From: a virus
Lineage: Duplodnaviria; Caudoviricetes
Length of the DNA stretch: 52,790 nt
Strand: one strand, 5' to 3'
Virus record (IMG/VR): IMGVR_UViG_3300049846_001564
Span: 1-52,790 of that record
Part shown: positions 28,800-51,040 of the stretch, one piece after another
Numbering within the stretch: position 1 is the first letter of the stretch
How the letters are laid out: the number at the start of each line of letters is the position of its first letter
The notes under the pieces: model-generated
Seen by the model: only the letters and a program-made list of their open reading frames with translations
Told to the model about the DNA's origin: nothing
The model's database searches: none
Made by a program: the position numbers and the translations under genes

Positions 28800-28933
28800 T
28801 TATATGTATTCTGTCTTTTGTATTCTTTAATTTGTTCTTCCGTGTATTTAGGTGCTTTAGGATTTCGTTTCCTATATGCCGCTAACCATTCTTTGAAGCA
28901 CACTAGCGTTGCATTAATTGAATTCTTACTCAT
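28796..28933 (-). CDS. small basic hypothetical protein, 45 aa (not in ORF track)
   Basis: MSKNSINATLVCFKEWLAAY...; ATGA-type overlap with the VOC gene. Confidence 0.5.
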   Translation of the reverse strand: MSKNSINATLVCFKEWLAAYRKRNPKAPKYTEEQIKEYKRQNTYK

Positions 28934-28953
28934 TTTTTTTTATTTTTATCTAG

Positions 28954-29027
28954 TAGCCTATGAGGGATTCAAACCCTCAGCAGTCGATTTTAGAGATCGA
29001 TTCCGGTATCAGTCCGGATCATAGGCC
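28954..29027 (-). tRNA. amber suppressor tRNA (anticodon CUA)
   Basis: Acceptor GGCCTAT/ATAGGCT; anticodon arm TCGAT-CTCTAAA-ATCGA; T arm GAGGG-TTTGAAT-CCCTC. Confidence 0.85.
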
Positions 29028-29040
29028 ATATATGGGGACA

Positions 29041-29340
29041 TTACGTCCCCATTAATTTTAATTTACTTATCAACTTATCATCGGTTTGAAGCGCAATCGC
29101 TGTAACTTGATTATCGTAATCCGGCTCAATAAATTTTGAATATTTAATTCCTTTTAAATCTAACTTAAACATAAATTTATCAATATCATCTACACTTAAA
29201 TAGATTAAATATTGGTTATTCCAAGTCTGATTCGGATTTTCTAATAACCATTGTGCTAATGCGTGCCCACCTTGTACTCCCTGGTACGCTAATGATATAT
29301 CACTTCGCACTACTACGTATAACTTCTAATCGAGCTTCAT
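29041..29340 (-). CDS. Pth2-like peptidyl-tRNA hydrolase with an in-frame TAG at codon 5
   Basis: MKLD*KLYVVVRSD..VQGGHA..W..YL..EPD..TAIAL; the track's GTG start truncates the first beta-strand. Confidence 0.75.
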
Positions 29341-29599
29341 ATTGATTGGTTAATTGGTTAATAAACTCATTACTAAAAACTTCCTTATAATTGATATCTA
29401 TTTGTTCAGGCTTTTTACCTTTAAGAATCCCATATTCCATATAAAGCTTCCTTAATTCAGCTCTATTATTTTGGTGAGTTAAGTATGCTTTCCAAGGTTC
29501 CATTGTTCTTTCACCTTTTAATCGAACAGTACGTTTTTGGTTTCTTAACATAACTTGTTGATCGGCTAAAACTTTTATTTTTTCTTTTAAATTTTCCAT
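29300..29599 (-). CDS. hypothetical basic helical protein in the Pth2/suppressor operon
   Basis: 99-aa ORF overlapping the Pth2 5' end. Confidence 0.65.
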   Translation of the reverse strand: MENLKEKIKVLADQQVMLRNQKRTVRLKGERTMEPWKAYLTHQNNRAELRKLYMEYGILKGKKPEQIDINYKEVFSNEFINQLTNQYEARLEVIRSSAK

Positions 29600-29656
29600 G
29601 ATTATTTTATTTTTTGATTTTAAAATTTTTTATTAAACGTATTCCGGTTTAATAAA

Positions 29657-29692
29657 TCATGGTCCATCTCGAGATCTGTTCTACATTTTCAT
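29657..29692 (-). promoter_or_regulatory. putative leader peptide MKM*NRSRDGP* with internal amber codon
   Basis: ATG AAA ATG TAG AAC AGA TCT CGA GAT GGA CCA TGA; its 3' end is complementary to the downstream start codon. Confidence 0.6.
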
Positions 29693-29731
29693 AATGCTAT
29701 TCTTTACTATAAATATATATATGGTTTTTAT

Positions 29732-30148
29732 TTAAAAAATTAATTTGGCATATCGTACTGCAATAGTAATACGGATTATCAACGGGTCAGCACTTTTATA
29801 TTCCAAACGTCCGAAATCTATTGATTTTATATCACCAACAACTTCCCATTGTTCTACCGTATCCCCCACCGGGCCTAATATTTTAATTATAATAGATATG
29901 GATTGATCATCTAACTGCATCAATTTTTTAATACCGTTAATGACAACTTGACCGGTAGATGGCGTGATGGGATCATACATACCGAATACCATGTCTTCCC
30001 ATACTATTCCACATTGTGTCTTATTAATAGATGGTCTCGAAGCTTCACATATTACGAAATTCGGTATCTCAAATGGAGCTCCGAATTCAACAATATACCT
30101 ATTTTCAATTTTAGGCTCGAAAGGAACTGATTTAAATTCAAGTGGCAT
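29732..30148 (-). CDS. T4 gp19-like tail tube protein
   Basis: FEPK..NRY, SRPS, YDPITPS, LGPVGDTVEQW, DFG.L. Confidence 0.7.
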   Translation of the reverse strand: MPLEFKSVPFEPKIENRYIVEFGAPFEIPNFVICEASRPSINKTQCGIVWEDMVFGMYDPITPSTGQVVINGIKKLMQLDDQSISIIIKILGPVGDTVEQWEVVGDIKSIDFGRLEYKSADPLIIRITIAVRYAKLIF

Positions 30149-30171
30149 AATTAAAATTTTATTATATTAGA

Positions 30172-31032
30172 TTATACATTTAAGGTCTTATTCCAAGCGG
30201 CAATGTGTAATCTAGTCAACCCGCGGAATCTATACTTCTTAGCCATTTCCATAACGAATCTGGTACGTTCTTCGAAATCATTGACATCATCTAAACCAGG
30301 CATACACACTACATTATGTAGTGGAATATTAAATGGTTCGACAAAGTCTCTAAATATTTCTTTAACGTCTTCTTCTGTACTAATAACAAACTTGAATTGG
30401 TAATTATCATGTTCCATAATACGTTTTATAGCTAAGGGAACTATTCGTTGTTTTTCAGTCATTCCTGAATTGGAAAGTTTAGGGGAACAATTTATTTGAG
30501 ACAACCATGAAAATAATTCATCCCCTATATAAAAAGTTCCATTAGTTTCAATTTCATGGAAAGGAATATAATCTAGATCTACAAGTTCATTCTTAGAATC
30601 TTCTAACTCCCATAATCTCCAATAATTAATAAAATTGACTATTTCTTCCTGATGATGTGGGATAGTAGGCTCACCACCTGTCCATATTAAATGAATAGTG
30701 CCATTCAATATATCATCATATATTCCTTGCTCTTTCCACCTGTCAATCAGATATTGAAAATCTTTATTTTCACCTCTTACAGCCCATTGGGAAACACTAT
30801 CACAAGTCCAAGTAGCTTCACCGGACATATGTAAATCACCGGTAATTACTTCTCCATCCTCAATATTGGATGGGCCGCCTTTAATTATTTCATTCATATG
30901 TCTTCTAGATAACCCACAATGCAAATTGCAATTAGCTAATCTAATAAAATATGATGGTACGCCGGAAGATATTCCTTCTCCTTGAATAGAATAAAAATCC
31001 GAACTAATTAATAGTTTATTTTCGCTGTTCAT
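30172..31032 (-). CDS. queE: 7-carboxy-7-deazaguanine synthase (radical SAM)
   Basis: FYSIQGEG, CNLHC...(insert)...CDS, TGGEP, IETNG, CSPKL, RLH. Confidence 0.9.
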   Translation of the reverse strand: MNSENKLLISSDFYSIQGEGISSGVPSYFIRLANCNLHCGLSRRHMNEIIKGGPSNIEDGEVITGDLHMSGEATWTCDSVSQWAVRGENKDFQYLIDRWKEQGIYDDILNGTIHLIWTGGEPTIPHHQEEIVNFINYWRLWELEDSKNELVDLDYIPFHEIETNGTFYIGDELFSWLSQINCSPKLSNSGMTEKQRIVPLAIKRIMEHDNYQFKFVISTEEDVKEIFRDFVEPFNIPLHNVVCMPGLDDVNDFEERTRFVMEMAKKYRFRGLTRLHIAAWNKTLNV

Positions 31033-32662: not shown

Positions 32663-33451
32663 TTATATTTTTCTATCATCATATTCTACAATACCTTTAT
32701 TAATCGCATATTGGTGTATTTCATGTCCGCGCTCTAAATTAAAAGCATTCCATTCTTTAGTTGAAATAGAATCCTTAGTACACGTTGTATAACAATTAGG
32801 CGTCTCATATAAAGTTATTTTATGAATACGCAAATTATCATACTGCTTAAATAAGATTTCCATAGCTAAAAATATTTCTTTAGCTATATTCTCCGCAGAT
32901 GGATTACAATATTCTCTGGCGCCATTTAGTGACATCAACCATAATTTACTACCTAATTTTTTGGTTACGTCTATTAATTCAGTGTCCTTCGGATTGAGAA
33001 TCATGCCATGATCTAAAATATCATCTATCCATTGACACCCAACTCTTTTTATTTCTTTAAAGTCAATGGCATACCCAATAGCTTCCATTTCATTGAATTC
33101 AAATTCGAGTTCGTATAAATATGTGTGGCCCTAATTTGTTATCGTAGAAGTTCTTTATCATCTACTTCTTATAGTTTCCTATAAGATCGGACTATATCAT
33201 CAGTATATAACTGTCGGGAGCTCGTGGAAGTTTTATTGTTGGGACTCAACTTCTAGTCTCTGAACCTTTTATGAAACTCATAACCCTTCATAACTTGGCT
33301 GCTGATTGGCATATCTTTCGAATTAGCGTTCCAGCAATTCACCCGATTTATAGTGCACCGCTCAATGCACATTAAAACATTTCATTCTTTCATTCATAAC
33401 ACGATGGCCAGAATCAAAGGATCCTTTCCTCGTTATGTATTGTACTTTCAT
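32663..33451 (-). CDS. queD: 6-carboxytetrahydropterin synthase, two exons (33451-33365 and 33130-32663), 184 aa spliced
   Basis: Joining gives FDSGHRV..KCFNVH|GHTY..IDF..LDH..PSAENIA..YETP. Confidence 0.9.
33131..33364 (-). mobile_element. ORF-less group I intron, 234 nt
   Basis: Exon ends in U, intron ends in G; P1 GTGCAT/GTGCAC with U.G wobble; P AATTGCTGGAA, Q AATCAGCAGCC, R GTTCAGAGACTAG, S GATATAGTCC. Confidence 0.92.
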
Positions 33452-34088
33452 ATTCCATTAATTTAAATTTGTTATTGATTATATGTTTATAATGCGGCAA
33501 AAACTTTTTATTTACAATAAATATAACATTAAAATCAGTGTATTCCAAATACGCATAAATTTTTTTTATATTTCGATCTCTGCCTTTACTAGTAGCAGAT
33601 GCTATACCCGATACTTCTATAATGTTATTGTTGACTATAAAATCTGGTTTATATAATGCATCTAATATTTTTAAAGTAGGTTCCCGTAATACGGTGTGCG
33701 TGCATATCAATTTGTAAATTTCAACTTCATATGAACTCCTAAACCAAATATCTTTGTATTTTATTCCTCTATTTATATTGGACAATACTTTATTAAGGCT
33801 ATTTTCATTTGCCATAGGATTGTCTTTACCTCGTTTAAACCCGCATGCCGGTGTACTTGTACCGTATATTTCTTTATATGTTTTGCCTCGAGTCGAACAT
33901 CCCATTCCAAATCTACGACCCGGGGTTTTTATTATTTTACCACAACCGCATGCACATTCACGTGGTTGTTTGCACTCGGTGCACGTATAACATTTAACAT
34001 CAGCAGCTTTAAAATTTACATTGCAATATTTGCATTTACAATCAAACTTTAATTTTTTAGGAGCGTATTTGCCTCGAATTAAACTCAT
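33414..34088 (-). CDS. free-standing homing endonuclease-like protein (Cys-rich N-terminus, PD-(D/E)XK C-terminus)
   Basis: CACGCG, FRSSYE, YKPDF..IIEV; overlaps queD exon 1. Confidence 0.65.
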   Translation of the reverse strand: MSLIRGKYAPKKLKFDCKCKYCNVNFKAADVKCYTCTECKQPRECACGCGKIIKTPGRRFGMGCSTRGKTYKEIYGTSTPACGFKRGKDNPMANENSLNKVLSNINRGIKYKDIWFRSSYEVEIYKLICTHTVLREPTLKILDALYKPDFIVNNNIIEVSGIASATSKGRDRNIKKIYAYLEYTDFNVIFIVNKKFLPHYKHIINNKFKLMEYESTIHNEERIL

Positions 34089-43293: not shown

Positions 43294-43368
43294 TGGAGGG
43301 CGGAGAGGGAATTGAACCCACATAAATTGTTTTGCAGACAACCACCTTACGCAATCGGACATCCGCCC
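43294..43368 (-). tRNA. tRNA-Cys(GCA)
   Basis: Cloverleaf, loop CTGCAAA, U73-CCA. Confidence 0.9.
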
Positions 43369-43389
43369 TTGTTTATATATTGGTAAATT

Positions 43390-43753
43390 TGGTGGAGGAG
43401 GAGGGATTCGAACCCTCGTTTCCGATACCATTTTAAAGATTTTCTACAAGTTTAGTTATATTTTTCTAAATACACAAACTATCTATTTTTACAGAATAGA
43501 AACTGTTTACCACTCTTATTTATGATCACCTAATGGTCCGTGGTGATGGCTCTATTTTTAGGCTACTTCTAACACTTCAGGCTTGGCTTCCTGAGCAACA
43601 CGTGTAATAAAAGTTGGGATACTCATCATATCCTCAGAGTTATAAATGTTTCCACTTATAGTTACCTATTAATTTTTTAATCGCACACATTAATAGGCAA
43701 TGCGATACTTGCTTGTCAATAAACTAAATATCGGGGCTTTCCATGTCTCCCCC
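43390..43753 (-). ncRNA. ssrA: tmRNA
   Basis: GGGGGAG/CTCCTCC-ACCA with G3.U70; T arm GAGGG-TTCGAAT-CCCTC; tag ORF 43653-43558 GNIYNSEDMMSIPTFITRVAQEAKPEVLEVA*. Confidence 0.9.
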
Positions 43754-43758
43754 ATAAT

Positions 43759-43914
43759 GATTGCTAACTAAATAACTTTATCAGGTATCCCGTTGTCACG
43801 ACAGACGACTTCACACACCATAAGAAGCCAATGAGTATATAAATACTTGTCTAAGTGTGTACCCTTTCGCACCGTACTTCGTAGCTGTTATTCCACGCGT
43901 TGTAATTAGCAATC
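43759..43914 (-). ncRNA. unidentified structured RNA candidate
   Basis: Terminal inverted repeat GATTGCTAA/TTAGCAATC, nested AATAAC/GTTATT and ACACAC/GTGTGT; no ORF. Confidence 0.5.
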
Positions 43915-43940
43915 TGGATCTTATATAAATATAGTTCAAG

Positions 43941-44012
43941 TACCCAATACAAGATTTGAACTCGTATCTTTGCGTTCGAAGCGCAAGATGTTATCCTTTA
44001 CACCAATCGGGC
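43941..44012 (-). tRNA. tRNA-Arg(UCG)
   Basis: TTGCG-CTTCGAA-CGCAA. Confidence 0.9.
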
Positions 44013-44016
44013 AAAT

Positions 44017-44219
44017 AATTAATTGAGCTTAACCGGAATTCTGCTTTATCGTAACATTTGACTATTCCCTGACCAGAGTTTCGAAGCCTTGCTCACCGGC
44101 TAACTCAATTTAGGTTTCTACCTCGGTAGTGCAAATGATTTTTTAAATCTCCTACCTTAAGCAATGTAGTTCCGAGTTTTCTAATACATTTAAGTACTCG
44201 TTACGTTCTCTTATTAATT
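44017..44219 (-). ncRNA. rnpB: minimal RNase P RNA (~203 nt)
   Basis: P1 ends AATTAAT..GAG/CTC..ATTAATT; P2 CGTAAC/GTTACG; AGAAAACTCGGAA pairs with GCAGAATTCCGGTTA (P4 with bulged U). Confidence 0.7.
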
Positions 44220-44222
44220 TAG

Positions 44223-44295
44223 TACCTCTACCGAGATTCGAACTCGGACAAACAGTTTCTAAGACTGTCCTGACTACCAATTACAGCATAGAGGC
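44223..44295 (-). tRNA. tRNA-Leu(UAG), short variable loop
   Basis: ACAGT-CTTAGAA-ACTGT; variable loop TTGT. Confidence 0.85.
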
Positions 44296-44652
44296 ATTTT
44301 TTGTTCTTTCTCTTATACGTTCTCTAATTATTAACTCATCTCTTTTAGTTGGAATATAATTATTCATTAAATGATCCGGTACATTATCCCAACAATTACC
44401 ATAGTAAGTAACATTATAGTTTCTACGTTTGCATTCTTTATAAAGTTCTTCATATCTGTTTTTTAAATATAATAACTTATCATAAAAAAATTTTACATGA
44501 CCTTTACCTAAAGTGAATTCTTTCGGCTGATCTTTTAAGTTGTACCTTCCTTTAACTATACAATTAGGAATCCTTTTTATTTCACGATGCTCGGCTATTA
44601 AATGCCTATTTGATAACTCCACAACCGGAATAGCTACATTTATTCTAGTCAT
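44281..44652 (-). CDS. denV: pyrimidine dimer DNA glycosylase / endonuclease V
   Basis: MTRIN, HLIAEHREIKRI, LGKGHVKFFYDKL. Confidence 0.9.
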   Translation of the reverse strand: MTRINVAIPVVELSNRHLIAEHREIKRIPNCIVKGRYNLKDQPKEFTLGKGHVKFFYDKLLYLKNRYEELYKECKRRNYNVTYYGNCWDNVPDHLMNNYIPTKRDELIIRERIRERTKNASML

Positions 44653-44666
44653 TTTTTAAAATTTAG

Positions 44667-44739
44667 TACCCGAACCGAGATTCGAACTCGGACACTTAGG
44701 TTTTGAGTCTAATACGACTACCAATTACGTCATTCGGGC
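44667..44739 (-). tRNA. tRNA-Leu(CAA), short variable loop
   Basis: Loop CTCAAAA; variable loop GTGT. Confidence 0.85.
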
Positions 44740-44743
44740 ATAT

Positions 44744-44813
44744 ACGGATCATTTACCTAATATGATACTAATGGTGATCAAGTCCATAGGTAGGATTCGA
44801 ACCTACTTTTCCG
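44744..44813 (-). ncRNA. permuted tRNA-like module (T arm, closed acceptor, D arm)
   Basis: CGGA..GTAGG-TTCGAAT-CCTAC-CTATGG..CCATTAG-TA-TCAT..ATGA-TCCG. Confidence 0.5.
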
Positions 44814-44819
44814 TTTTTG

Positions 44820-44892
44820 TACCCCCACTCGGATTCGAACCGAGACACTTAGATTTTAAGCCTAATACGACTACCAATTACGTCATGGGGGC
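44820..44892 (-). tRNA. tRNA-Leu(UAA), short variable loop
   Basis: TTAGG-CTTAAAA-TCTAA; variable loop GTGT. Confidence 0.85.
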
Positions 44893-44901
44893 AAATTAAA
44901 A

Positions 44902-45645
44902 CTATCCTATTTTATTTATTATATCTTTTTTACTTAATTTCATTGCTTCGGATGCATATATACTAGATTTAGGTCCATTAACCTTACTCTGTCCACTTGA
45001 AAAGCCTTCTGTATAATTAGTGGAATAAGCATACTGCCCCGATATATCTACTACGACAAAATTAGACTTTATATTTACAGACCATATACCGTGCTGTAAT
45101 AATAACTGTATATAAACAGTTTTCCATTTAAATCCTTTCTTTTCTAGATTTTCTAGATTTGCCGCCGTTTGTTTACTAAACGATACTTTATCATACGGTT
45201 TTTTGATACCGGCAAAGTCTACGTTCTTTTTACCTATTTTAAACTTAAAGTGAGTTTTATTTTGTTTTTGAATTAATGCGGTATATAAGCTACTAACTTT
45301 ATCTCTAATCTTCCCAATTGAATATTTTTTTAATTCCGCTTTAGCTTTAGCGTCTTTCGCAATTAAATCTTTAATTTTTTTAGGCGTGCTATTATTATCA
45401 TGCAATAAATCTGAAAGTTCTTTTCCATCAAAAACTTTATGCAAATCCAATCCTCGCGGGACATCATTTAGTGATGTCTGTTTTAAAATTTCAATTGGAT
45501 CATAATATTTTTCATTTAGCTGTGCGTGCTTCCATTCCGAACTACTTTTGTAAATTGTTCCATGTTTATATTCCTTTATGTTATCAAGTATAATTTTGCT
45601 AATAGCAGGAATAATTTCTTTTGCACTTTTCTTAACTAGAGCCAT
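44902..45645 (-). CDS. hypothetical Lys-rich protein inside the tRNA array
   Basis: 247-aa ORF preceded by the ATATTTAT motif. Confidence 0.7.
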   Translation of the reverse strand: MALVKKSAKEIIPAISKIILDNIKEYKHGTIYKSSSEWKHAQLNEKYYDPIEILKQTSLNDVPRGLDLHKVFDGKELSDLLHDNNSTPKKIKDLIAKDAKAKAELKKYSIGKIRDKVSSLYTALIQKQNKTHFKFKIGKKNVDFAGIKKPYDKVSFSKQTAANLENLEKKGFKWKTVYIQLLLQHGIWSVNIKSNFVVVDISGQYAYSTNYTEGFSSGQSKVNGPKSSIYASEAMKLSKKDIINKIG

Positions 45646-45682
45646 TGTTTATTTTTATATAAATATTAAGAATTATTTTTTG

Positions 45683-45754
45683 AGCTTCTAACCGGGATCG
45701 GACCGATGAATCATCTTTACGAAAGACGTAGTTTACCAATTAACTTATAGAAGC
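45683..45754 (-). tRNA. tRNA-Thr(CGU)
   Basis: CGTCT-TTCGTAA-AGATG. Confidence 0.85.
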
Positions 45755-45757
45755 GAG

Positions 45758-45830
45758 AGCACCCACCAGGTAACGATCCTGGTTCTCTAGTTTACAAAAC
45801 TAGACATCATCCATTAAATGCTTTGGGTGC
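45758..45830 (-). tRNA. tRNA-Thr(UGU)
   Basis: CTAGT-TTTGTAA-ACTAG. Confidence 0.85.
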
Positions 45831-45836
45831 TTCATA

Positions 45837-46250
45837 TTACTGATTCTTTTCATAACCAGAAAGATACCCAATAATATTTTGTTTACCAACCGGATTCATA
45901 CTATGAACCAAATAATCAGGTAATTTAAGTTTATGATCTATACAAAAGTCTACTAACCATTTAGCACATTCATATCCTGTCTTTTCTTTAAACCGTGAAT
46001 AGTTTCTATTATATGCATCCGGACCTTCATACATAGTAGGAGCATAATGTTCATCAGCTAAATCATGATCAAATGAAATTAATTCCGGGAAAGCACCATC
46101 CTCATCAAACTTATTAGTTATTTCCTGAATAAACTCATCATACGACCTAACTACTACCCATCGTAAATTATTATACAATGTATTATGAGTATATTTAAAA
46201 GCGTCCATAGGGCTTCTAAAATCATCTAAGAATAAATTATATTTCATCAT
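45837..46250 (-). CDS. cyclic-phosphate-processing receiver-like domain protein
   Basis: LFLDD.R, ISFDHDL, TGYECAKWL, VHSMNPVG. Confidence 0.75.
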   Translation of the reverse strand: MMKYNLFLDDFRSPMDAFKYTHNTLYNNLRWVVVRSYDEFIQEITNKFDEDGAFPELISFDHDLADEHYAPTMYEGPDAYNRNYSRFKEKTGYECAKWLVDFCIDHKLKLPDYLVHSMNPVGKQNIIGYLSGYEKNQ

Positions 46251-46271
46251 AATAACTAATTTTTATTTTTG

Positions 46272-46357
46272 CGGAAGATAATGGTAACGATCCATTCCGG
46301 GTTTAAAGCCCGACCTCTGTTTAGCAAACAGGTACAATACCTCTCTGTCAATCTTCC
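46272..46357 (-). tRNA. tRNA-Ser(GCU)
   Basis: Loop TTGCTAA, long variable arm, G73. Confidence 0.9.
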
Positions 46358-46365
46358 GTATCAAG

Positions 46366-46449
46366 CGGTAAGTAGAAGTGTCGATCTCCCATCCTTGTAG
46401 ACGCATCCTAGTTTTCAAGACTAGTTCCCAGGCCGCTGGGGTACTTACC
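46366..46449 (-). tRNA. tRNA-Ser(UGA)
   Basis: CTAGT-CTTGAAA-ACTAG, long variable region, G73. Confidence 0.85.
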
Positions 46450-46457
46450 GTGTTATG

Positions 46458-46530
46458 TAGCTCTATAAGGATTCAAACCTTAACTCAATCATTCGTAGTG
46501 ATTAGTACTATTCAATTATACTATAGAGCC
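46458..46530 (-). tRNA. tRNA-Arg(ACG)
   Basis: AATCA-CTACGAA-TGATT. Confidence 0.9.
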
Positions 46531-46575
46531 ATGCTGAATATCAAGCAGTTACCCGAACCGCCCGAAGTTCATTAG

Positions 46576-46648
46576 TACCCCTACTAGGATTCAAACCTAG
46601 ATACTGGGTTTAGAAGACCCAGGTCCTATTCTATTAAACGATAGGGGC
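46576..46648 (-). tRNA. tRNA-Arg(UCU)
   Basis: TGGGT-CTTCTAA-ACCCA. Confidence 0.9.
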
Positions 46649-46654
46649 ATTTTG

Positions 46655-46727
46655 TGTTTCTACCAAGATTCAAACTCGGATAATCTCTTTAGGAAAGAGA
46701 TATGTTATTCAATTACATCATAGAAAC
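46655..46727 (-). tRNA. tRNA-Arg(CCU)
   Basis: TCTCT-TTCCTAA-AGAGA. Confidence 0.85.
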
Positions 46728-46774
46728 AATATATAAATTTAATTTATTATTACATATAAACCAAATTTATTAAG

Positions 46775-46848
46775 GGTGTCCAATGGGTTACGATCCCATG
46801 TCCTTACTTTCACAGAGTAGCGCACTTACCAATTATGCTATGGACACC
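46775..46848 (-). tRNA. tRNA-His(GUG)
   Basis: Loop CTGTGAA; encoded G-1 opposite C73. Confidence 0.9.
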
Positions 46849-46854
46849 ATTTTG

Positions 46855-46926
46855 CGCAAGTGGCAGGATTCGAACCCGCATAAGGCAGTTTTGGAGGCTG
46901 CTACCTAACCATTCGGACACACTTAC
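46855..46926 (-). tRNA. tRNA-Trp(CCA)
   Basis: Loop CTCCAAA, G73. Confidence 0.85.
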
Positions 46927-46939
46927 GTATTTGTCATTG

Positions 46940-47012
46940 TGGGAAACAGTGGACTCGAACCACATTGCAGTTCGGTTTTACAGACCGTCTGACCAACCCC
47001 GGGCGATTTCCC
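46940..47012 (-). tRNA. tRNA-Tyr(GUA), atypical D arm and short variable region
   Basis: CGGT-CTGTAAA-ACCG; T arm GTGG-TTCGAGT-CCAC. Confidence 0.7.
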
Positions 47013-47017
47013 AATTG

Positions 47018-47089
47018 TGCGTTCGAAGAGACTTGAACTCTTATAGCCTAGTTTAAGAGACTAGTACATTACCATTATGCTACGAACGC
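47018..47089 (-). tRNA. tRNA-Lys(CUU)
   Basis: CTAGT-CTCTTAA-ACTAG. Confidence 0.9.
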
Positions 47090-47186
47090 AATGTGCGAAC
47101 CTCTCTTCGCGTGTCACCCTCCACTGTTTAGCGCCTATCGGTATATACCGATTAAATTGAGTCCGCGGACAGGTCAACGACTCTCT

Positions 47187-47260
47187 TGGTACCCCCTGAG
47201 AGATTTGAACTCCCACCAATTGCATGTAAAACAATCACGCTACCATTACGCCAAAGGGGC
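47187..47260 (-). tRNA. tRNA-Val(UAC)
   Basis: ATTGT-TTTACAT-GCAAT; encoded CCA. Confidence 0.9.
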
Positions 47261-47271
47261 ATTTAAAATAG

Positions 47272-47349
47272 TACTCTCGGGGGGACTTGAACCCACATTT
47301 TCAACCAATTACCTTTATGCAAGATATAAGCTTGCGGGGATACGAGAGC
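47272..47349 (-). tRNA. rearranged tRNA-Ile(UAU): no D arm, D-loop-like variable region
   Basis: GCTCTCG-TATCCCC-GCAAG-CTTATAT-CTTGC-ATAAAGGTAATTGGTTGAAAAT-T arm-CGAGAGT-A. Confidence 0.7.
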
Positions 47350-47356
47350 AAATTCT

Positions 47357-47462
47357 GACATCACTAGGATTCAATTAACCGCCTTTAAGTTTTTATTGCT
47401 TTCGAGCAGAAACTCCATAATCCGTCGGAGCGTCCTTGAATCATTCGGACTAATAGATGTCA
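47357..47462 (-). ncRNA. unidentified structured RNA candidate between the two Ile tRNAs
   Basis: Nested TGACATC/GATGTCA and GATTCAA/TTGAATC stems plus internal hairpins. Confidence 0.45.
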
Positions 47463-47465
47463 TAG

Positions 47466-47543
47466 TCGGCAAGGAGGGAGTTGAACCCACATTTTCAACC
47501 AATTACCTTACTCCTGTGTATCAGACAGGGCGGATACTTGCCG
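47466..47543 (-). tRNA. rearranged tRNA-Ile(GAU): no D arm, D-loop-like variable region
   Basis: CGGCAAG-TATCCGC-CCTGT-CTGATAC-ACAGG-AGTAAGGTAATTGGTTGAAAAT-T arm-CTTGCCG-A. Confidence 0.7.
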
Positions 47544-47616
47544 TGGCTGCAAGGGTGGGGTTTCACCACGCATCCGGCTGACAGACCGGTACTCTATTTT
47601 GCTAAGCTACCTTGCG
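47544..47616 (-). tRNA. atypical tRNA-Asp(GUC)-like
   Basis: GCAAGG/CCTTGC acceptor, GCCA end, CCGG-TCTGTCAG-CCGG, non-consensus T loop TGAAACC. Confidence 0.5.
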
Positions 47617-47696
47617 ATACGAGCTTTTTATCTTATGACTAATACGTACTCGTCATCTATTATTACCTCGCATTTTTATACATTCCTGTATAAGAG

Positions 47697-47770
47697 TGGA
47701 CACGTTCGGACTTGAACCGAGAACTCTGGACTGCAAAACCAGTGTGATAGCCAAATTTCACCAACGGCCC
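47697..47770 (-). tRNA. tRNA-Ala(UGC)
   Basis: G3.U70, loop TTTGCAG, bulged acceptor stem. Confidence 0.8.
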
Positions 47771-47776
47771 TTATTT

Positions 47777-47862
47777 CCTCGTGCTACCATTACACTATAT
47801 CTCAAATACAACGACGTTGTCGTCGACATTCTCATAGATATCGGAATCGAACCGCTCTTAGG
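47777..47862 (-). ncRNA. permuted tRNA-like module with long insert closing the acceptor stem
   Basis: CCT..CGG-TTCGATT-CCG-ATATCT..AGATA-TA-GTGT-AATGGTA-GCAC-G-AGG. Confidence 0.5.
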
Positions 47863-47866
47863 GTAG

Positions 47867-47936
47867 ATGCCTCATTAGGACTTGAACCTAAAATTACTGC
47901 TTCAGAGGCAGTAGTGTTACATTACACTATAAGGCA
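47867..47936 (-). tRNA. tRNA-Gln(CUG)
   Basis: ACTGC-CTCTGAA-GCAGT. Confidence 0.85.
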
Positions 47937-47942
47937 TTTTAG

Positions 47943-48015
47943 TAGCCCCTATCTGAATCGAACAGATACCCTTCGGGTCAAAGCCGAATACACTCAACCA
48001 TTATGCTAAGGGGCA
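47943..48015 (-). tRNA. tRNA-Gln(UUG)
   Basis: TTCGG-CTTTGAC-CCGAA. Confidence 0.85.
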
Positions 48016-48018
48016 ATA

Positions 48019-48204
48019 TTAAATACTATCAGAAATTTCTTTTTTAGTTAATCGTTTCAACCAGGTCCTTCTAAGTTTAGAAAATAGATTTCTTTGTATT
48101 TTACTTTTTCTTTTTTTAGACATTTTGTTATCGCAACACGGGCACTTCATGCCTCCTGGACCACCTATATATAGGAATCCAGCCTCTTTATATAAATCTT
48201 TCAT
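48019..48204 (-). CDS. small basic protein, 61 aa, with CPCC
   Basis: MKDLYKEAG..GPGGMKCPCC..; start placed after tRNA-Gly. Confidence 0.55.
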   Translation of the reverse strand: MKDLYKEAGFLYIGGPGGMKCPCCDNKMSKKRKSKIQRNLFSKLRRTWLKRLTKKEISDSI

Positions 48205-48219
48205 AATATATAATTTTAG

Positions 48220-48290
48220 AGCAGGTAATGGAAATCGAATCCACAACTGCGACTTGGCAAGCCGCTGTATTACCATTATACTATACCTGC
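48220..48290 (-). tRNA. tRNA-Gly(GCC)
   Basis: GCGGC-TTGCCAA-GTCGC. Confidence 0.9.
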
Positions 48291-48295
48291 TTATG

Positions 48296-48369
48296 AGCAC
48301 GTGATCGGCATCGAACCGACTCTATTCCTGGTTGGAAGCCAGGTGCACCACCATTTATGCGTCACATGC
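48296..48369 (-). tRNA. tRNA-Gly(UCC)
   Basis: CCTGG-CTTCCAA-CCAGG. Confidence 0.9.
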
Positions 48370-48379
48370 TTATTTTAAT

Positions 48380-48517
48380 TGGTGCGGTGAGTGGTAGTTT
48401 ATCCCCACGTCTCCCAGTACTCGACCGGGCACGCTACTTTGAAATATTAACTAGTTTATTAAGAAGGCCTTCTTAATATAGTCGCGACTAAAATATTCCA
48501 TTCTGCGCCATCACCAA
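48380..48517 (-). ncRNA. tRNA-like RNA with ~60-nt insertion in the D loop
   Basis: GGTGA/TCACC acceptor, ACCA end, GCGC/GCGT D stem, CCCGG-TCGAGTA-CTGGG arm, non-consensus T loop. Confidence 0.45.
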
Positions 48518-48519
48518 CG

Positions 48520-48591
48520 TACCGATACTGAAACTCGAATTCAGATTAATGCCTTATGAGAGCACTGTAATTGCCTTTATACGATATCGAT
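48520..48591 (-). tRNA. tRNA(CAU), elongator Met or Ile2
   Basis: GTGCT-CTCATAA-GGCAT. Confidence 0.8.
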
Positions 48592-48596
48592 ATTAG

Positions 48597-48674
48597 TAGC
48601 GAGGGTGGGATTCGAACCCACATTATGAACTGCTTATGAGACAGACGCTGGTAACCATTCCAGTCCTCCTCGCG
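48597..48674 (-). tRNA. tRNA-Met(CAU), initiator-like acceptor
   Basis: C1/U72 mismatch, CGCGAGG acceptor, loop CTCATAA. Confidence 0.75.
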
Positions 48675-48679
48675 ATATG

Positions 48680-48755
48680 TCTAGCATCCAGGATTCGAAC
48701 CTGGGCTTTCTGCGCCCCAAACGCAGCCGGAAAAACCTGACTTCCGTAATGCTAG
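48680..48755 (-). tRNA. tRNA-Pro(UGG)
   Basis: CTGCG-TTTGGGG-CGCAG; C1-G72, A73. Confidence 0.9.
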
Positions 48756-48838
48756 ATAAAAAAGAATCCAACGTTCCCCCGAGTGTGCTATTCTACTTTA
48801 CACCATGGGCGCCTCCCAGAGTGTTCTGATTCTTTATG

Positions 48839-48910
48839 CGGTCTATGAGGGTTACGATCCCTCTACCCCACCGTGACAGGATGGTATGATAGCCAGTTCA
48901 CCAATAGACC
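48839..48910 (-). tRNA. tRNA-Asp(GUC)
   Basis: CCATC-CTGTCAC-GGTGG, G73. Confidence 0.9.
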
Positions 48911-48953
48911 GGGTCGCCCTTTTTATTTTAAATGCCGGGCACAGCATTCAAAG

Positions 48954-49027
48954 TAGCCCCAACGGAAGTCGAATCCGTATCGCAGGATTGAAAGTCCTGC
49001 ATCCTAAGCCATTTAGACGATGGGGCC
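48954..49027 (-). tRNA. tRNA-Glu(UUC)
   Basis: CAGGA-CTTTCAA-TCCTG. Confidence 0.9.
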
Positions 49028-49108
49028 ATATTATCCGCAATATTCCGCGGATAAGTTTTAAATTTACCAATATGTCAAAGATCAATAATATAATCGAAAT
49101 TTAATTAG

Positions 49109-49199
49109 TGCGCTCGGTTGGATTCGAACCAACGCGGGGATTTGTCATCCCATCGGTTTAAAAGACCGGACCATTCGACCTGACTAAGGATACGAGCGC
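49109..49199 (-). tRNA. tRNA-Lys(UUU) with long variable arm
   Basis: CGGT-CTTTTAA-ACCG; variable arm GGGAT-GACAA-ATCCC; acceptor GCGCTCG/CGAGCGC-A. Confidence 0.8.
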
Positions 49200-49208
49200 A
49201 TTTATATA

Positions 49209-49265
49209 GCGCTCTTTCCTTAGAGCGCATTAACGTTTATATTTTCGTTTATATTTCATTTTCAT
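49209..49265 (-). promoter_or_regulatory. Lys-rich leader MKMKYKRKYKR* (49265-49230) plus hairpin GCGCTCT/AGAGCGC
   Basis: 5 of 11 codons are AAA; the hairpin 3' arm is also complementary to the tRNA-Lys 5' end. Confidence 0.6.
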
Positions 49266-49279
49266 TCTTTTTTTAATCG

Positions 49280-49351
49280 AGCCAACACTGAAAATCGAAT
49301 TCAGATATCTACCTTACCAAGGTAGCGTAATAGCCTTTATACTATGTCGGC
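49280..49351 (-). tRNA. tRNA-Thr(GGU)
   Basis: CTACC-TTGGTAA-GGTAG. Confidence 0.9.
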
Positions 49352-49357
49352 TTAATG

Positions 49358-49429
49358 CGGGGGAGATTGGTAACGATCCAATATCCGGTGCTTAACAGGC
49401 ACTCGCTAATCCATTTCAGCTACACCCCC
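49358..49429 (-). tRNA. tRNA-Asn(GUU)
   Basis: GTGC-CTGTTAA-GCAC, G73. Confidence 0.85.
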
Positions 49430-49435
49430 ATTATG

Positions 49436-49757
49436 TTGCCCTAAACTCTCTTAGGCTTTTATACCTATTGTAGGCGCGGCATTCGGCGCCTCGTTATTCG
49501 GAATTTCTTCCTACAGTTTATACGAAGGGCGTCCTACCTTTGAACGATCTGGCCGAAGCCAGAGTAGGACTCGAACCTACATTTCCCCTTGATCTTGCCG
49601 GTAAACTCTCTTGAGATTTTACACCCATTGTAGGCGTAGCATGAACGCCTCGTTGTTCAGAATTTCTTCCTACAGTTTACCTCGACCGGCGTTTTTCTAT
49701 TAAACTACCTGGACGCTAAGCGTCCTGGGTGGGATTCGAACCCACATCTCCGGTTTC
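49436..49757 (-). repeat. two tandem ~160-nt units, each a permuted tRNA-like module plus a conserved ~85-nt structured tail
   Basis: Tails 49436-49520 and 49595-49680 share TAAACTGTAGGAAGAAATTC..AACGAGGCG..CGCCTACAAT..AAGAGAGTTTA. Confidence 0.8.
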
Positions 49758-49758
49758 G

Positions 49759-49831
49759 TGCGATGGGTTGGTACCGAGCCAACATCTACGGATTTTCAGT
49801 CCGCTGCATAGACCATCTTTGCTACCACCGC
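49759..49831 (-). tRNA. tRNA-Phe(GAA)
   Basis: GCGGA-CTGAAAA-TCCGT. Confidence 0.85.
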
Positions 49832-50174: not shown

Positions 50175-51040
50175 ACGCTGAGATTATACGTTTATACGTC
50201 ACGACTTTCAAAGGATTATCTTGTTCCCTTTTTATCCAGAAGCTTTTGACTTCTACCTTGACAATGCCGATTGGTTAGACCAATCACTCCTTGAGTTGCT
50301 ATTTATCGGTTACTCTCTACATACTAACTCTTACTTAACCCTGCCGAGCTAATTAATCCTTGCGAGACTATAAGGCTTTCTACAAAATCAATATCAGCTT
50401 GCGACTAATATTGGCATCCGACAACCGGATACTAGGTAGGCATCTTTCACCTGCAACTGACAAGCACTTTTGCTTTTATGTTTCCAATGAGATTTTCATT
50501 AACAGTGAAATTCATAGTAGCGACTTGTGGATGGATGAAAGTAGTGGCTCGTCATTCCAGCTTTCCCAACTTTTGGAAGGGAAAATACTAAACTACTCTC
50601 TAAGATGTCCCCATCTTCATATTTTAAGATTCTTTCATAAAATGAACTTGGTGAGTTCATAATAAGGAAAACAGCAACACCACTTGGTTATTTTCTTGCT
50701 TTTCAGCTTTAAAGCTCCTCTAATATTGAAACACGCAATAGTACATTTAGATAAATGTATTTCTTACAATACTTCTATGAATTATTCTTATTGGAGTTCC
50801 CCCCTCAACCCAACAACCCACATTGCCGAGTCACCAAATCCGTTCCGTCTCAGTGTTACCCAAACGTACTTGGATCCAATGATATTCCACTTGCCTACTC
50901 GAGTCCAAATATTTCTATTTGGGCCGCAAACTACTTCAGTCAAAGTAATTCACTTTATACCACTTTCATGGTTTATTTAACGACTATAGGCCGCCAATAT
51001 CTTTTCATTAATCCAAATTCCGGACTAATTGGATACAAAT
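50175..51040 (-). ncRNA. large structured non-coding RNA candidate (~860 nt, GOLLD-sized)
   Basis: No minus-strand ORF in the track, raised GC, many hairpins including GNRA loops, next to the tRNA array, boxA-like site upstream. Confidence 0.6.

Follow-up and report, generated by a model that had tools for sequence, protein, structure and literature searches.

A conserved amber-interrupted leader upstream of a small phage gene: candidate translational attenuation gated by amber suppression

An amber-interrupted leader ends on a helix over the next start codon

Sequence analysis of a 52,790-nucleotide (nt) stretch of phage DNA (Caudoviricetes; IMG/VR record IMGVR_UViG_3300049846_001564, positions 1 to 52,790), referred to in its entirety as the window, was utilized to characterize a short leader open reading frame (ORF) that is interrupted by an in-frame TAG and ends on a helix covering the start codon of the next gene, which encodes a protein of 99 amino acids (aa). 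Translational attenuation gated by amber suppression is the best reading of this arrangement and, in our judgement, a likely one. The 99-aa gene is probably switched on only when a phage tRNA reads the UAG through. Directly observed are the sequences and their folds, their conservation, the specificity for TAG, the link to the tRNA and the lack of recoding across the genome; from these we infer read-through in vivo, a pause at the proline codon and stop that end the leader (Pro-stop), and an effect on expression. The elements of the module, all on the minus strand, are as follows.

29692-29657, minus: leader ORF, M-K-M-(TAG)-N-R-S-R-D-G-P-stop (TGA), upstream of and co-oriented with the 99-aa gene
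29662-29655, minus: 5' (anti-start) arm CCATGATT, which shares bases with the final leader codon and the stop
29629..29656, minus: inner hairpin TTTATTAAAC (29656-29647) / GTTTAATAAA (29638-29629), a perfect 10 base pairs (bp) with an 8-nt loop
29603-29596, minus: 3' arm AATCATGG, holding the ATG (29599-29597) of the 99-aa gene
29300..29599, minus: 99-aa gene with the conserved core NQRKTVxLxGERTMEPW, from a widespread and unnamed family of phage proteins

The leader reads ATG AAA ATG TAG AAC AGA TCT CGA GAT GGA CCA TGA, with the ATG at 29692-29690, the TAG at 29683-29681, the proline codon CCA at 29662-29660 and the TGA at 29659-29657. The UAG sits 19 nt before the helix, and the gap from the end of the leader to the main ATG is 57 nt. 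Together the leader and helix occupy the 132-nt spacer between a tail-tube-like gene (30148-29732) and the 99-aa ORF (29599-29300). A preliminary description of this DNA had reported the leader, the helix and the hairpin, and every one of its coordinates was right when the sequence was re-checked. The complementarity it described is exact, CCATGATT being the reverse complement of AATCATGG, and both helices are present in the minimum free energy (MFE) fold. As the outer and inner helices overlap at positions 29656-29655, the fold holds 7 outer and 9 inner pairs.

In the window the MFE was -17.8 kcal/mol compared to -12.5 +/- 2.6 kcal/mol for shuffled sequences (z = -2.0), and 7 out of 200 shuffles were equally good. 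A perfect helix of at least 8 bp over the ATG, within 130 nt, was found at 2 of the 67 gene starts in the window, and among these 67 the start of the 99-aa gene was the 4th least accessible. When the 5' arm was shuffled, the observed duplex energy was reached in 9 of 1000 cases in one test and in 0 of 300 in another. Judged on the window alone the helix is suggestive, that is, unusual but within the reach of chance for a scan of roughly 70 genes. The hairpin was also considered as an intrinsic terminator and rejected, as it has no T-run and was not called as a terminator.

Conservation of the leader among relatives

Loci encoding the 99-aa family were collected from IMG/VR, one metagenome contig (L003) and two genome-collection records using alignments and two degenerate patterns, which were needed as single-protein scans of IMG/VR returned no relatives. 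A scan with alignment A5 gave only one, already known, locus among the matches listed. Out of 40 pattern-derived candidates, 32 passed the family hidden Markov model (HMM) at E<=1e-3; L067, L091, L099-L101, L103, L104 and L106 failed this threshold and were dropped as chance pattern matches, and L102 was dropped as marginal (13 bits). The resulting set comprised 35 contigs, window included and each contig counted once, many of them from giant phages (contigs of 133-256 kb were rated 30-36% complete). The leader was found in 32 of the 35, and the family proteins they encode are 35-71% identical. This amounted to 21 distinct leaders, 19 of which were analysed, L007 and L012 being left out as they differ by 1-2 bases from L005 and L008. 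Four close homologues of the 99-aa protein, P0002-P0005, are left out of the leader set, in which L098 is the only near kin of the window.

The leaders are 8-17 codons long, carry the gate UAG at codon 3-7 and split into a Pro-stop class of 14 and a clade of 5 named here after L009. The peptides of the Pro-stop class, where x denotes TAG and the second stop follows the last residue, are:

MKMxNRSRDGP (window); MNKxIQTRGDP; MKHxINRPP (two versions, CCG CCT / CCA CCT)
MKKHNxVRPP; MEHxIIRPP (two); MRHxISLPP; MKDTxFTARPP; MRHLxMTTRPP; MKHLxMTTRPP
MTHxIRSP; MKxISKSRGP; M..xIASGFLxIADIKVPP

A proline codon directly precedes the second stop in all 14, and eight end in RPP (L003, L031, L004, L005, L008, L079, L070 and L093), the other endings being LPP, VPP, RGP, RSP, RGDP and RDGP. 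Conservation of RxGP or RxPP in homologous leaders, suggested in the preliminary description as a check, is therefore borne out in a looser form, as a C-terminal proline throughout and RPP in most of the class, while the SecM-like RxGP is specific to the window and not family-wide. In the L009 clade the leaders (MKHQHxVLSF[DG]RGSPFIIF... and relatives) have a read-through frame that passes through the 5' arm. This frame ends inside or after the arm in L074 and L073 and 9-12 nt before the main ATG in L034. In L009 (2866-3003) and L078 the frame of the amber leader continues into the main ORF with no further stop, meaning that read-through would yield an N-terminally extended family protein.

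A different arrangement was observed upstream of the family gene in L077, whose upstream region is identical to that of L088 and L096. Here a gene of the helix-turn-helix type ends in TAG, followed by five in-frame codons and TAA roughly 25 nt before the family ATG; 2.2 kb upstream there is a tRNA with the anticodon CUA (tRNA(CUA)). Read-through may be coupled to the family gene in another way here.

Conservation of the helix

In all 19 distinct leaders the main start region pairs with a segment located at the leader end or beyond it, and only 0-11 out of 300 shuffles paired as well. Energies of the duplex between the segment after the TAG and the start region spanned -10 to -19 kcal/mol, compared to -4.6 to -8.1 kcal/mol for shuffles. 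When the full spacer was folded, start positions -6 to +4 were paired with leader positions 7-22, which comprise the final codon, the stop and the bases that follow, in each of the 14 Pro-stop leaders. Measured from the first base of the second stop, the start of the 5' arm falls between -5 and +2 nt in all 14, as computed for 12 and determined by hand for L072 and L107, where fold and translation confirmed it. As the arm begins at the leader stop, a ribosome decoding the last codons must have unwound it.

Per-sequence folds and a comparison of cognate and non-cognate duplexes were used in place of column-wise covariation. The arms differ by lineage yet remain complementary, for instance GATTATTTCTTA/TAAGAAATAATC in L004 and TTTTATTATTTTTA/TAAAAATAATAAAA in L009. 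For L004, L009, L079, L070, L093, L098 and L107 the best-pairing 3' arm was in each case that of the same leader. Within the Pro-stop class the own 3' arm was the best partner for 8 of the 14, and the others share a near-identical 3' arm, AATAATCATGG. Inner hairpins or palindromes occupy the same place in the relatives with unrelated sequence. Two to five direct GGACA repeats were also noted between the leader arms in some lineages (L003, L005 and L013), and in L070, L079 and L093 TTCGCAA/TTGCGAA palindromes take their place.

The gate codon and the sequence that follows it

The first stop of the leader is TAG in 19 out of 19 cases, and TAG is the rarest stop in these genomes, where it terminates only 5-15% of genes. 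TAG is not used as second stop, which is TAA in 12 and TGA in 2 of the Pro-stop leaders, and TAA or TGA wherever present in the others. Behind the gate, the arginine codons are CGC, CGA and AGA, and the terminal proline uses all four of its codons. L003 and L031 differ at two positions after the TAG, both synonymous, and the L009 clade retains R-G-S-P through GGT/GGA, TCA/TCC and CCT/CCA. The sequence after the gate TAG accordingly looks translated, as far as codon usage can tell. In 18 of 19 leaders the TAG is followed by a purine (partly determined by eye), and a purine in this position favours suppression.

Recoding of TAG throughout these genomes (code 15) was considered and rejected. The window is 85% coding under the standard code (code 11), and reading TAG as sense raised coding density no more than the TGA and TAA controls did, whether in the window, G001-G005, G006 (217 kb) or G007 (133 kb). 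This test covers 3-36% of each genome (93% for G009), and late-gene regions outside the covered part could differ. The 75 minus-strand ORFs of at least 50 aa in the window end in TAA (48), TGA (19) or TAG (8). A search of the 67 window genes for an ATG followed by a few codons, a TAG and an ORF returned a single gene, similar to peptidyl-tRNA hydrolase 2 (PTH2-like). A genome-wide scan of six records for the same pattern returned the same PTH2-like gene and no excess of TAG over TAA. A 60-aa ORF joined by an in-frame TAG to a clamp-loader gene (AAA+/gp44-like; 15840-14587, minus), 24 codons apart, was treated as chance; the 60-aa ORF has no family match and the AAA+ domain begins after the annotated ATG.

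A second candidate amber-gated gene and an amber suppressor tRNA lie downstream

Directly downstream of the 99-aa gene, the window contains the PTH2-like gene and a tRNA gene.

29041..29340, minus: PTH2-like gene; ATG at 29340, AAG CTC GAT, TAG at 29328-29326, KLYVVVRSD..., TAA at 29043-29041
29032..29052, minus: hairpin ATGGGGAC-GTAAT-GTCCCCAT, spanning the PTH2-like stop, 4 nt before the tRNA
28954..29027, minus: amber suppressor tRNA, anticodon loop CU-CUA-AA (Rfam RF00005)

The tRNA scored 42.2 bits with RF00005 (gathering score 29, E 3e-7) over its full length, with the loop CUCUAAA, and was missed both by ARAGORN and by the filtered whole-window Rfam run. It lies 270 nt downstream of the leader and 99-aa module. 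In 17 of 20 lineage types (the window and 16 further types, the latter by ARAGORN) such a tRNA(CUA) lies no more than roughly 2.5 kb from the family gene, with L003 (contig end) and L079 not judged. In G006 it is among only 3 tRNAs in 217 kb. In L098 a weak tRNA-like sequence with a CUCUAAA loop follows the PTH2-like gene (L098:1712-1786; 20 bits with the tRNA-Sec model); by eye it shows a 4-bp anticodon stem and an 8-nt loop. Hairpins of the form GCATGGACA...TGTCCATGC stand directly before the suppressor tRNA in the relatives L004, L005 and L013. Together with the GGACA repeats and the palindromes of the leaders, these hairpins may be processing or protein-binding sites.

The PTH2-like gene of the window begins ATG AAG CTC GAT TAG AAG TTA TAC GTA GTA GTG..., with the TAG as codon 5. 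The conserved N-terminal strand KLYVVV, which aligns to KLIVIT in relatives, sits between this TAG and the GTG at which an ORF finder would start the gene. The window protein had no Pfam hit. The homologue in L003 matched Pfam PF01981 with 37.2 bits (cut-off 23) over profile positions 2-112 of 115, starting 4 residues past the TAG, and profile A6, in which the window protein stands first, matched solved Pth2 chains at E values of 1e-7 and 2e-6. By HMM the gene is present in all 19 distinct loci scanned, and it contains an in-frame TAG in 15 of them. In 12 of the 19 the TAG stands immediately before the conserved N-terminus, after an ATG mini-ORF of 1-9 codons, with no other start codon available. 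In three more (L009, L034 and L078) it falls at codon 43, in the middle of the domain. A mid-domain TAG is beyond what re-initiation can explain and speaks for decoding of UAG as sense in these phages. L098, L073 and L074 have a PTH2-like gene that needs no TAG, and in L077 the gene is cut by the end of the locus.

Proposed mechanism and points that weigh against it

A promoter-like element precedes the leader.

29716-29708 (within 29705..29720), minus: promoter-like element ATATTTATA of the TAnnTTTA type, roughly 15 nt upstream of the leader ATG

Transcription probably starts at this element. In the absence of suppression, ribosomes would make M-K-M and be released at the UAG, and the main AUG would stay paired in the helix CCAUGAUU/AAUCAUGG, which the inner hairpin closes. 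No Shine-Dalgarno sequences are visible upstream of the window gene starts, and accessibility of the start site is therefore likely to be the main determinant of initiation. When the suppressor tRNA decodes the UAG, the ribosome would translate seven more codons up to the Pro-UGA. With the proline codon or the stop in its decoding sites it would cover the whole 5' arm (29662-29655), so that the main AUG would be freed and the 99-aa protein made. The C-terminal Arg...Pro before the stop probably slows release and would prolong the open state; stalling at the Pro-stop is plausible by analogy with known arrest peptides. Read-through itself is credible on the account of the suppressor tRNA nearby and the second amber-gated gene, neither of which the preliminary description had noted. 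The preliminary description had proposed translational attenuation by read-through followed by stalling at RDGP-stop. The architecture behind that proposal, an amber leader ending on a start-hiding helix, is supported by the relatives, with complementary arms in all 19 distinct leaders analysed; its SecM-like motif does not recur.

As the tRNA stands at the 3' end of the same string of genes, the module may report on its own tRNA. A self-contained amber-suppressor control circuit, in which the tRNA(CUA) is co-transcribed with two genes that depend on it and whose products feed back on suppression or its side effects, is a tentative extension that we regard as possible but doubtful. Speculative candidates for the feedback would be hydrolysis of the suppressor tRNA or its peptidyl form, rescue of read-through ribosomes or antagonism of release factor 1 (RF1). 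The outcome could be a homeostat, or else a bistable switch, that sets how UAG is read.

Several observations weigh against attenuation gated by amber suppression, or against parts of it. The helix in the window is short, at 8 bp, with a duplex energy of -10 kcal/mol and the modest z score given above. RNAalifold, run on a MAFFT alignment of the 14 leaders, gave no consensus pairs, a result attributed to length variation and register shifts that defeat the alignment. In 12 of the 14 MFE folds the CC of the terminal proline codon pairs with the GG of ATGG, so the conservation of this "proline" may in part or in whole be a constraint on RNA pairing. The characterised arrest cores RAPP, RGPP, RAPG and RAGP were found in 0 of the 14 Pro-stop leaders. 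There is no Pro-stop in the L009 clade, and stalling at such an end is therefore not general, though melting of the helix by a read-through ribosome is. The clade shows that the common denominator would be melting by a translating ribosome and coupling near the main start. L098, the leader closest to that of the window, comes from a 149-kb contig that is rated 93% complete and in which no tRNA was found by ARAGORN or at the Rfam gathering score; its PTH2-like gene starts in the normal way, with no TAG. L077, L088 and L096 have no leader despite a family gene and a nearby tRNA(CUA). Finally, an ATG directly follows the TAG in L070 and L093, where initiation or re-initiation is possible, as it is at ATT, ATC, ATA and GTT in most other leaders.

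Alternative explanations

The UAG could be an ordinary stop, with the helix repressing the gene until some other factor intervenes (a protein, a small RNA, an RNase cut or temperature) and the codons after the TAG being kept as RNA. The CC:GG pairing of the "proline" codon speaks for this explanation, the GGACA and GCATGGACA repeats and the palindromes that several lineages have between the arms and before the tRNA are possible protein-binding sites, and L098 keeps a TAG leader without a confident tRNA. Left unexplained are the use of TAG, the rarest stop, as first stop in every leader and as second stop in none, the switches between CGN and AGA arginine codons and the third-position variation outside the helix, and the linked tRNA(CUA). 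In addition, the neighbouring PTH2-like gene needs UAG to be decoded mid-domain in one clade. We consider the explanation unlikely.

The leader could also sense the activity of host RF1 or near-cognate read-through, so that any cause of poor termination at UAG in the infected cell would turn the gene on, the phage tRNA being one route among others. The geometry and the TAG specificity would be the same as in the attenuation model, L098 again has a leader and a doubtful tRNA, and there is a parallel in the autoregulation of release factor 2 (RF2) through an in-frame UGA in prfB. The presence of a tRNA(CUA) close to the family gene in most lineage types is hard to explain if the tRNA is irrelevant, and no sequence pointer to an RF1 inhibitor was found. 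This too seems improbable, to about the same degree as the ordinary stop.

Termination at the UAG followed by re-initiation at the next codon would give a second peptide (I/M...RPP) without suppression, the mini-ORF serving only to deliver ribosomes. The codon after the TAG fits in a majority of leaders, being ATT, ATC, ATA or ATG in 10 of the 14 Pro-stop leaders, with ATG itself in the two cases mentioned, and GTT in the L009 clade. It is, however, AAC in the window, TTT in L079 and GTA in L004. Re-initiation gives no reason for TAG over the far commoner TAA, and it fails on the codon-43 TAG of L009, L034 and L078 and on the AAG that follows the TAG in the PTH2-like gene of the window. We rate it as very unlikely.

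Chance complementarity without function in an AT-rich spacer, for which the modest signal of the window alone would speak (z = -2.0 and an 8-bp helix at 2 of 67 starts), is refuted by the recurrence of the leader in nearly all family contigs, with proteins as little as 35% identical, and by the co-varying arms; once the relatives are counted, comparison of the sequences leaves a chance origin of leader and helix excluded.

Relation to known systems

Attenuation gated by amber suppression would place the module next to SecM-secA, MifM-yidC2 and the ermC/cat leaders, where a short upstream ORF likewise ends on or next to a helix that hides a start and that is opened by a ribosome halted at the leader end. 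What they sense is the force of secretion, or an antibiotic acting on the stalled ribosome, whereas here the input is apparently UAG read-through at codon 3-7. The leader is also only 8-17 codons long, there is no Shine-Dalgarno sequence and the AUG itself is paired. The module thus appears to be leader-peptide attenuation with a new kind of input, namely the decoding of a stop codon. The prfB gene, which encodes RF2, is autoregulated through an in-frame UGA and a +1 frameshift and so regulates the release factor itself. An early in-frame stop senses termination efficiency in both cases, but in the present module it is read-through by a tRNA that would be sensed, and the outputs are other proteins.

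In TnaC (R23-P24-UGA) and uORF2 of cytomegalovirus (CMV) gp48, a C-terminal proline before the stop is recognised in termination arrest, according to the part of PMC8450073 consulted, and poly-proline C-termini lower termination efficiency, as stated in a section of PMC6412442. Similarly, proline stands right before the stop in all Pro-stop leaders, though not in the five leaders of the L009 clade, and the stop is UGA, as in TnaC, in the leaders of the window and L098. Unlike TnaC and CMV uORF2, the leaders lack a long preceding peptide that would occupy the exit tunnel and have no known ligand, and the proline codon is also part of an RNA helix. The abstracts of PMC7897499 and PMC10951233 describe the RAPP-like arrest peptides ApdA, ApdP and ApcA and the RAGP of SecM, and the arrest cores listed above are those given as characterised in the relevant part of PMC12992588. 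An Arg-x-Pro/Gly-Pro core on a small upstream ORF is common to these peptides and to the leaders, the RDGP of the window resembling RAGP and the RGP-stop of L072 resembling RGPP. Most leaders, however, end in RPP-stop with no residue between the arginine and the two prolines, and the last proline of RAPP-type peptides, which arrest ahead of peptide-bond formation, is the aminoacyl-tRNA in the A site, while here a stop codon follows the proline.

Recoded (code 15) phages carry in-frame stops in 26-71% of their genes, chiefly structural and lysis genes, and standard-code relatives with acquired suppressor tRNAs were also noted, according to passages of the preprint of Borges et al. (10.1101/2021.08.26.457843). 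The present module resembles the "code change modules" of such phages in that a phage tRNA(CUA) is combined with in-frame UAGs that make expression dependent on the tRNA. It differs in that no general recoding was seen in the sequence analysed, the UAGs being confined to the leader and one small gene beside the tRNA. Synthetic switches with a UAG in a leader, in which downstream expression depends on a suppressor tRNA, are described in section 6 and the legend to Figure 8 of PMC6412442. They are engineered, employ transcription termination in tna/trp leaders and use unnatural amino acids, while the module proposed here is natural and would act on translation initiation. A leader/helix sensor is absent from the passages of the Borges preprint covered (Table S2 and the supplementary figures being outside the scope), and no natural amber-gated leader was described in the portions of text reached by full-text literature searches, in that preprint or in a 2026 jumbo-phage survey, supplements again being outside the scope. 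The literature covered also takes in parts of PMC13037316 and PMC5852040.

Suppressor tRNAs are common in large standard-code phages and their targets are puzzling; according to the XacN1 paper, the two amber suppressor tRNAs of that phage had no targets that could be found. In the window the candidate targets adjoin the tRNA. The leader and the small hydrolase-like gene each have a UAG close to the 5' end and are retained in phages whose proteins are only 35-70% identical. Were amber-gated attenuation true, the module would be a natural counterpart of the engineered switches and a compact, portable part for expression that depends on amber suppression, and possibly an early stage of, or a control layer in, the code switches of recoded phages. 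The control circuit, if true, would also give suppressor tRNAs a purpose in phages without recoding. With standard gene callers, genes of this kind are missed or given the wrong start, and the suppressor tRNA of the window escapes ARAGORN.

The 99-aa protein

The protein encoded by the putatively gated gene has four homologues (P0002-P0005) at 65-71% identity, and a profile search returned 339 cluster representatives of the family at E<=1e-3. All close homologues begin with MENLK, which supports the annotated ATG. No match to the protein was found in Pfam or PHROG, or by tblastn in the phage GenBank collection. An AlphaFold2 (AF2) model is helical with a pLDDT of 83; it had no fold match in the PDB at E<=0.001, and its hits in the Atlas were all below 0.8. 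Two longer "fusions" that contain the family were uninformative on function. Prediction of a complex between the PTH2-like and 99-aa proteins scored 0.15, against a mark of 0.32, and weighs neither way on binding. In the L004-L013 group a thioredoxin-like ORF and a large TROVE/Ro60-like protein were noted by eye as neighbours of the module (L006 4920-6209, L013 3007-4101).

Genomic context and other features of the window

The window is a 52.8-kb contig with a completeness rating of 29% and a G+C content of 33%, and nearly every gene is on the minus strand. Genes around the leader encode a family-B DNA polymerase, GTP cyclohydrolase I, a dUTPase, a QueE-like radical-SAM enzyme and an AAA ATPase. 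The 138-aa gene immediately upstream of the leader had distant tail-tube hits only. Positions 28800-30700 of the window had no DNA match in the phage GenBank collection.

The promoter-like element ATATTTATA appears to resemble the -7 box of Bacteroidota. Of its 11 copies in the window 10 share the strand of the genes; most copies stand shortly before a gene or a tRNA cluster, and a TAnnTTT[GA] element is also found upstream of the leaders of relatives. As an enriched motif the element was rejected, 11 copies being observed where 8.7 were expected, and only its strand and position are suggestive.

Three further structured RNAs were observed on the minus strand. A group I intron (33168-33421; RF00028, 91.6 bits, full length) lies between the ORFs 33414-34088 and 32663-33088. 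A phage tmRNA (43390-43753; RF00023, 76 bits), on which ARAGORN agrees, adjoins an array of roughly 28 tRNAs (43297-49831), two of which (43297-43368 and 47697-47770) were found by Rfam and missed by ARAGORN. A GOLLD RNA (50175-50600; Rfam RF02032, 250 bits, full length) stands just upstream of the tRNA array and accounts for the ORF-poor stretch at this position.

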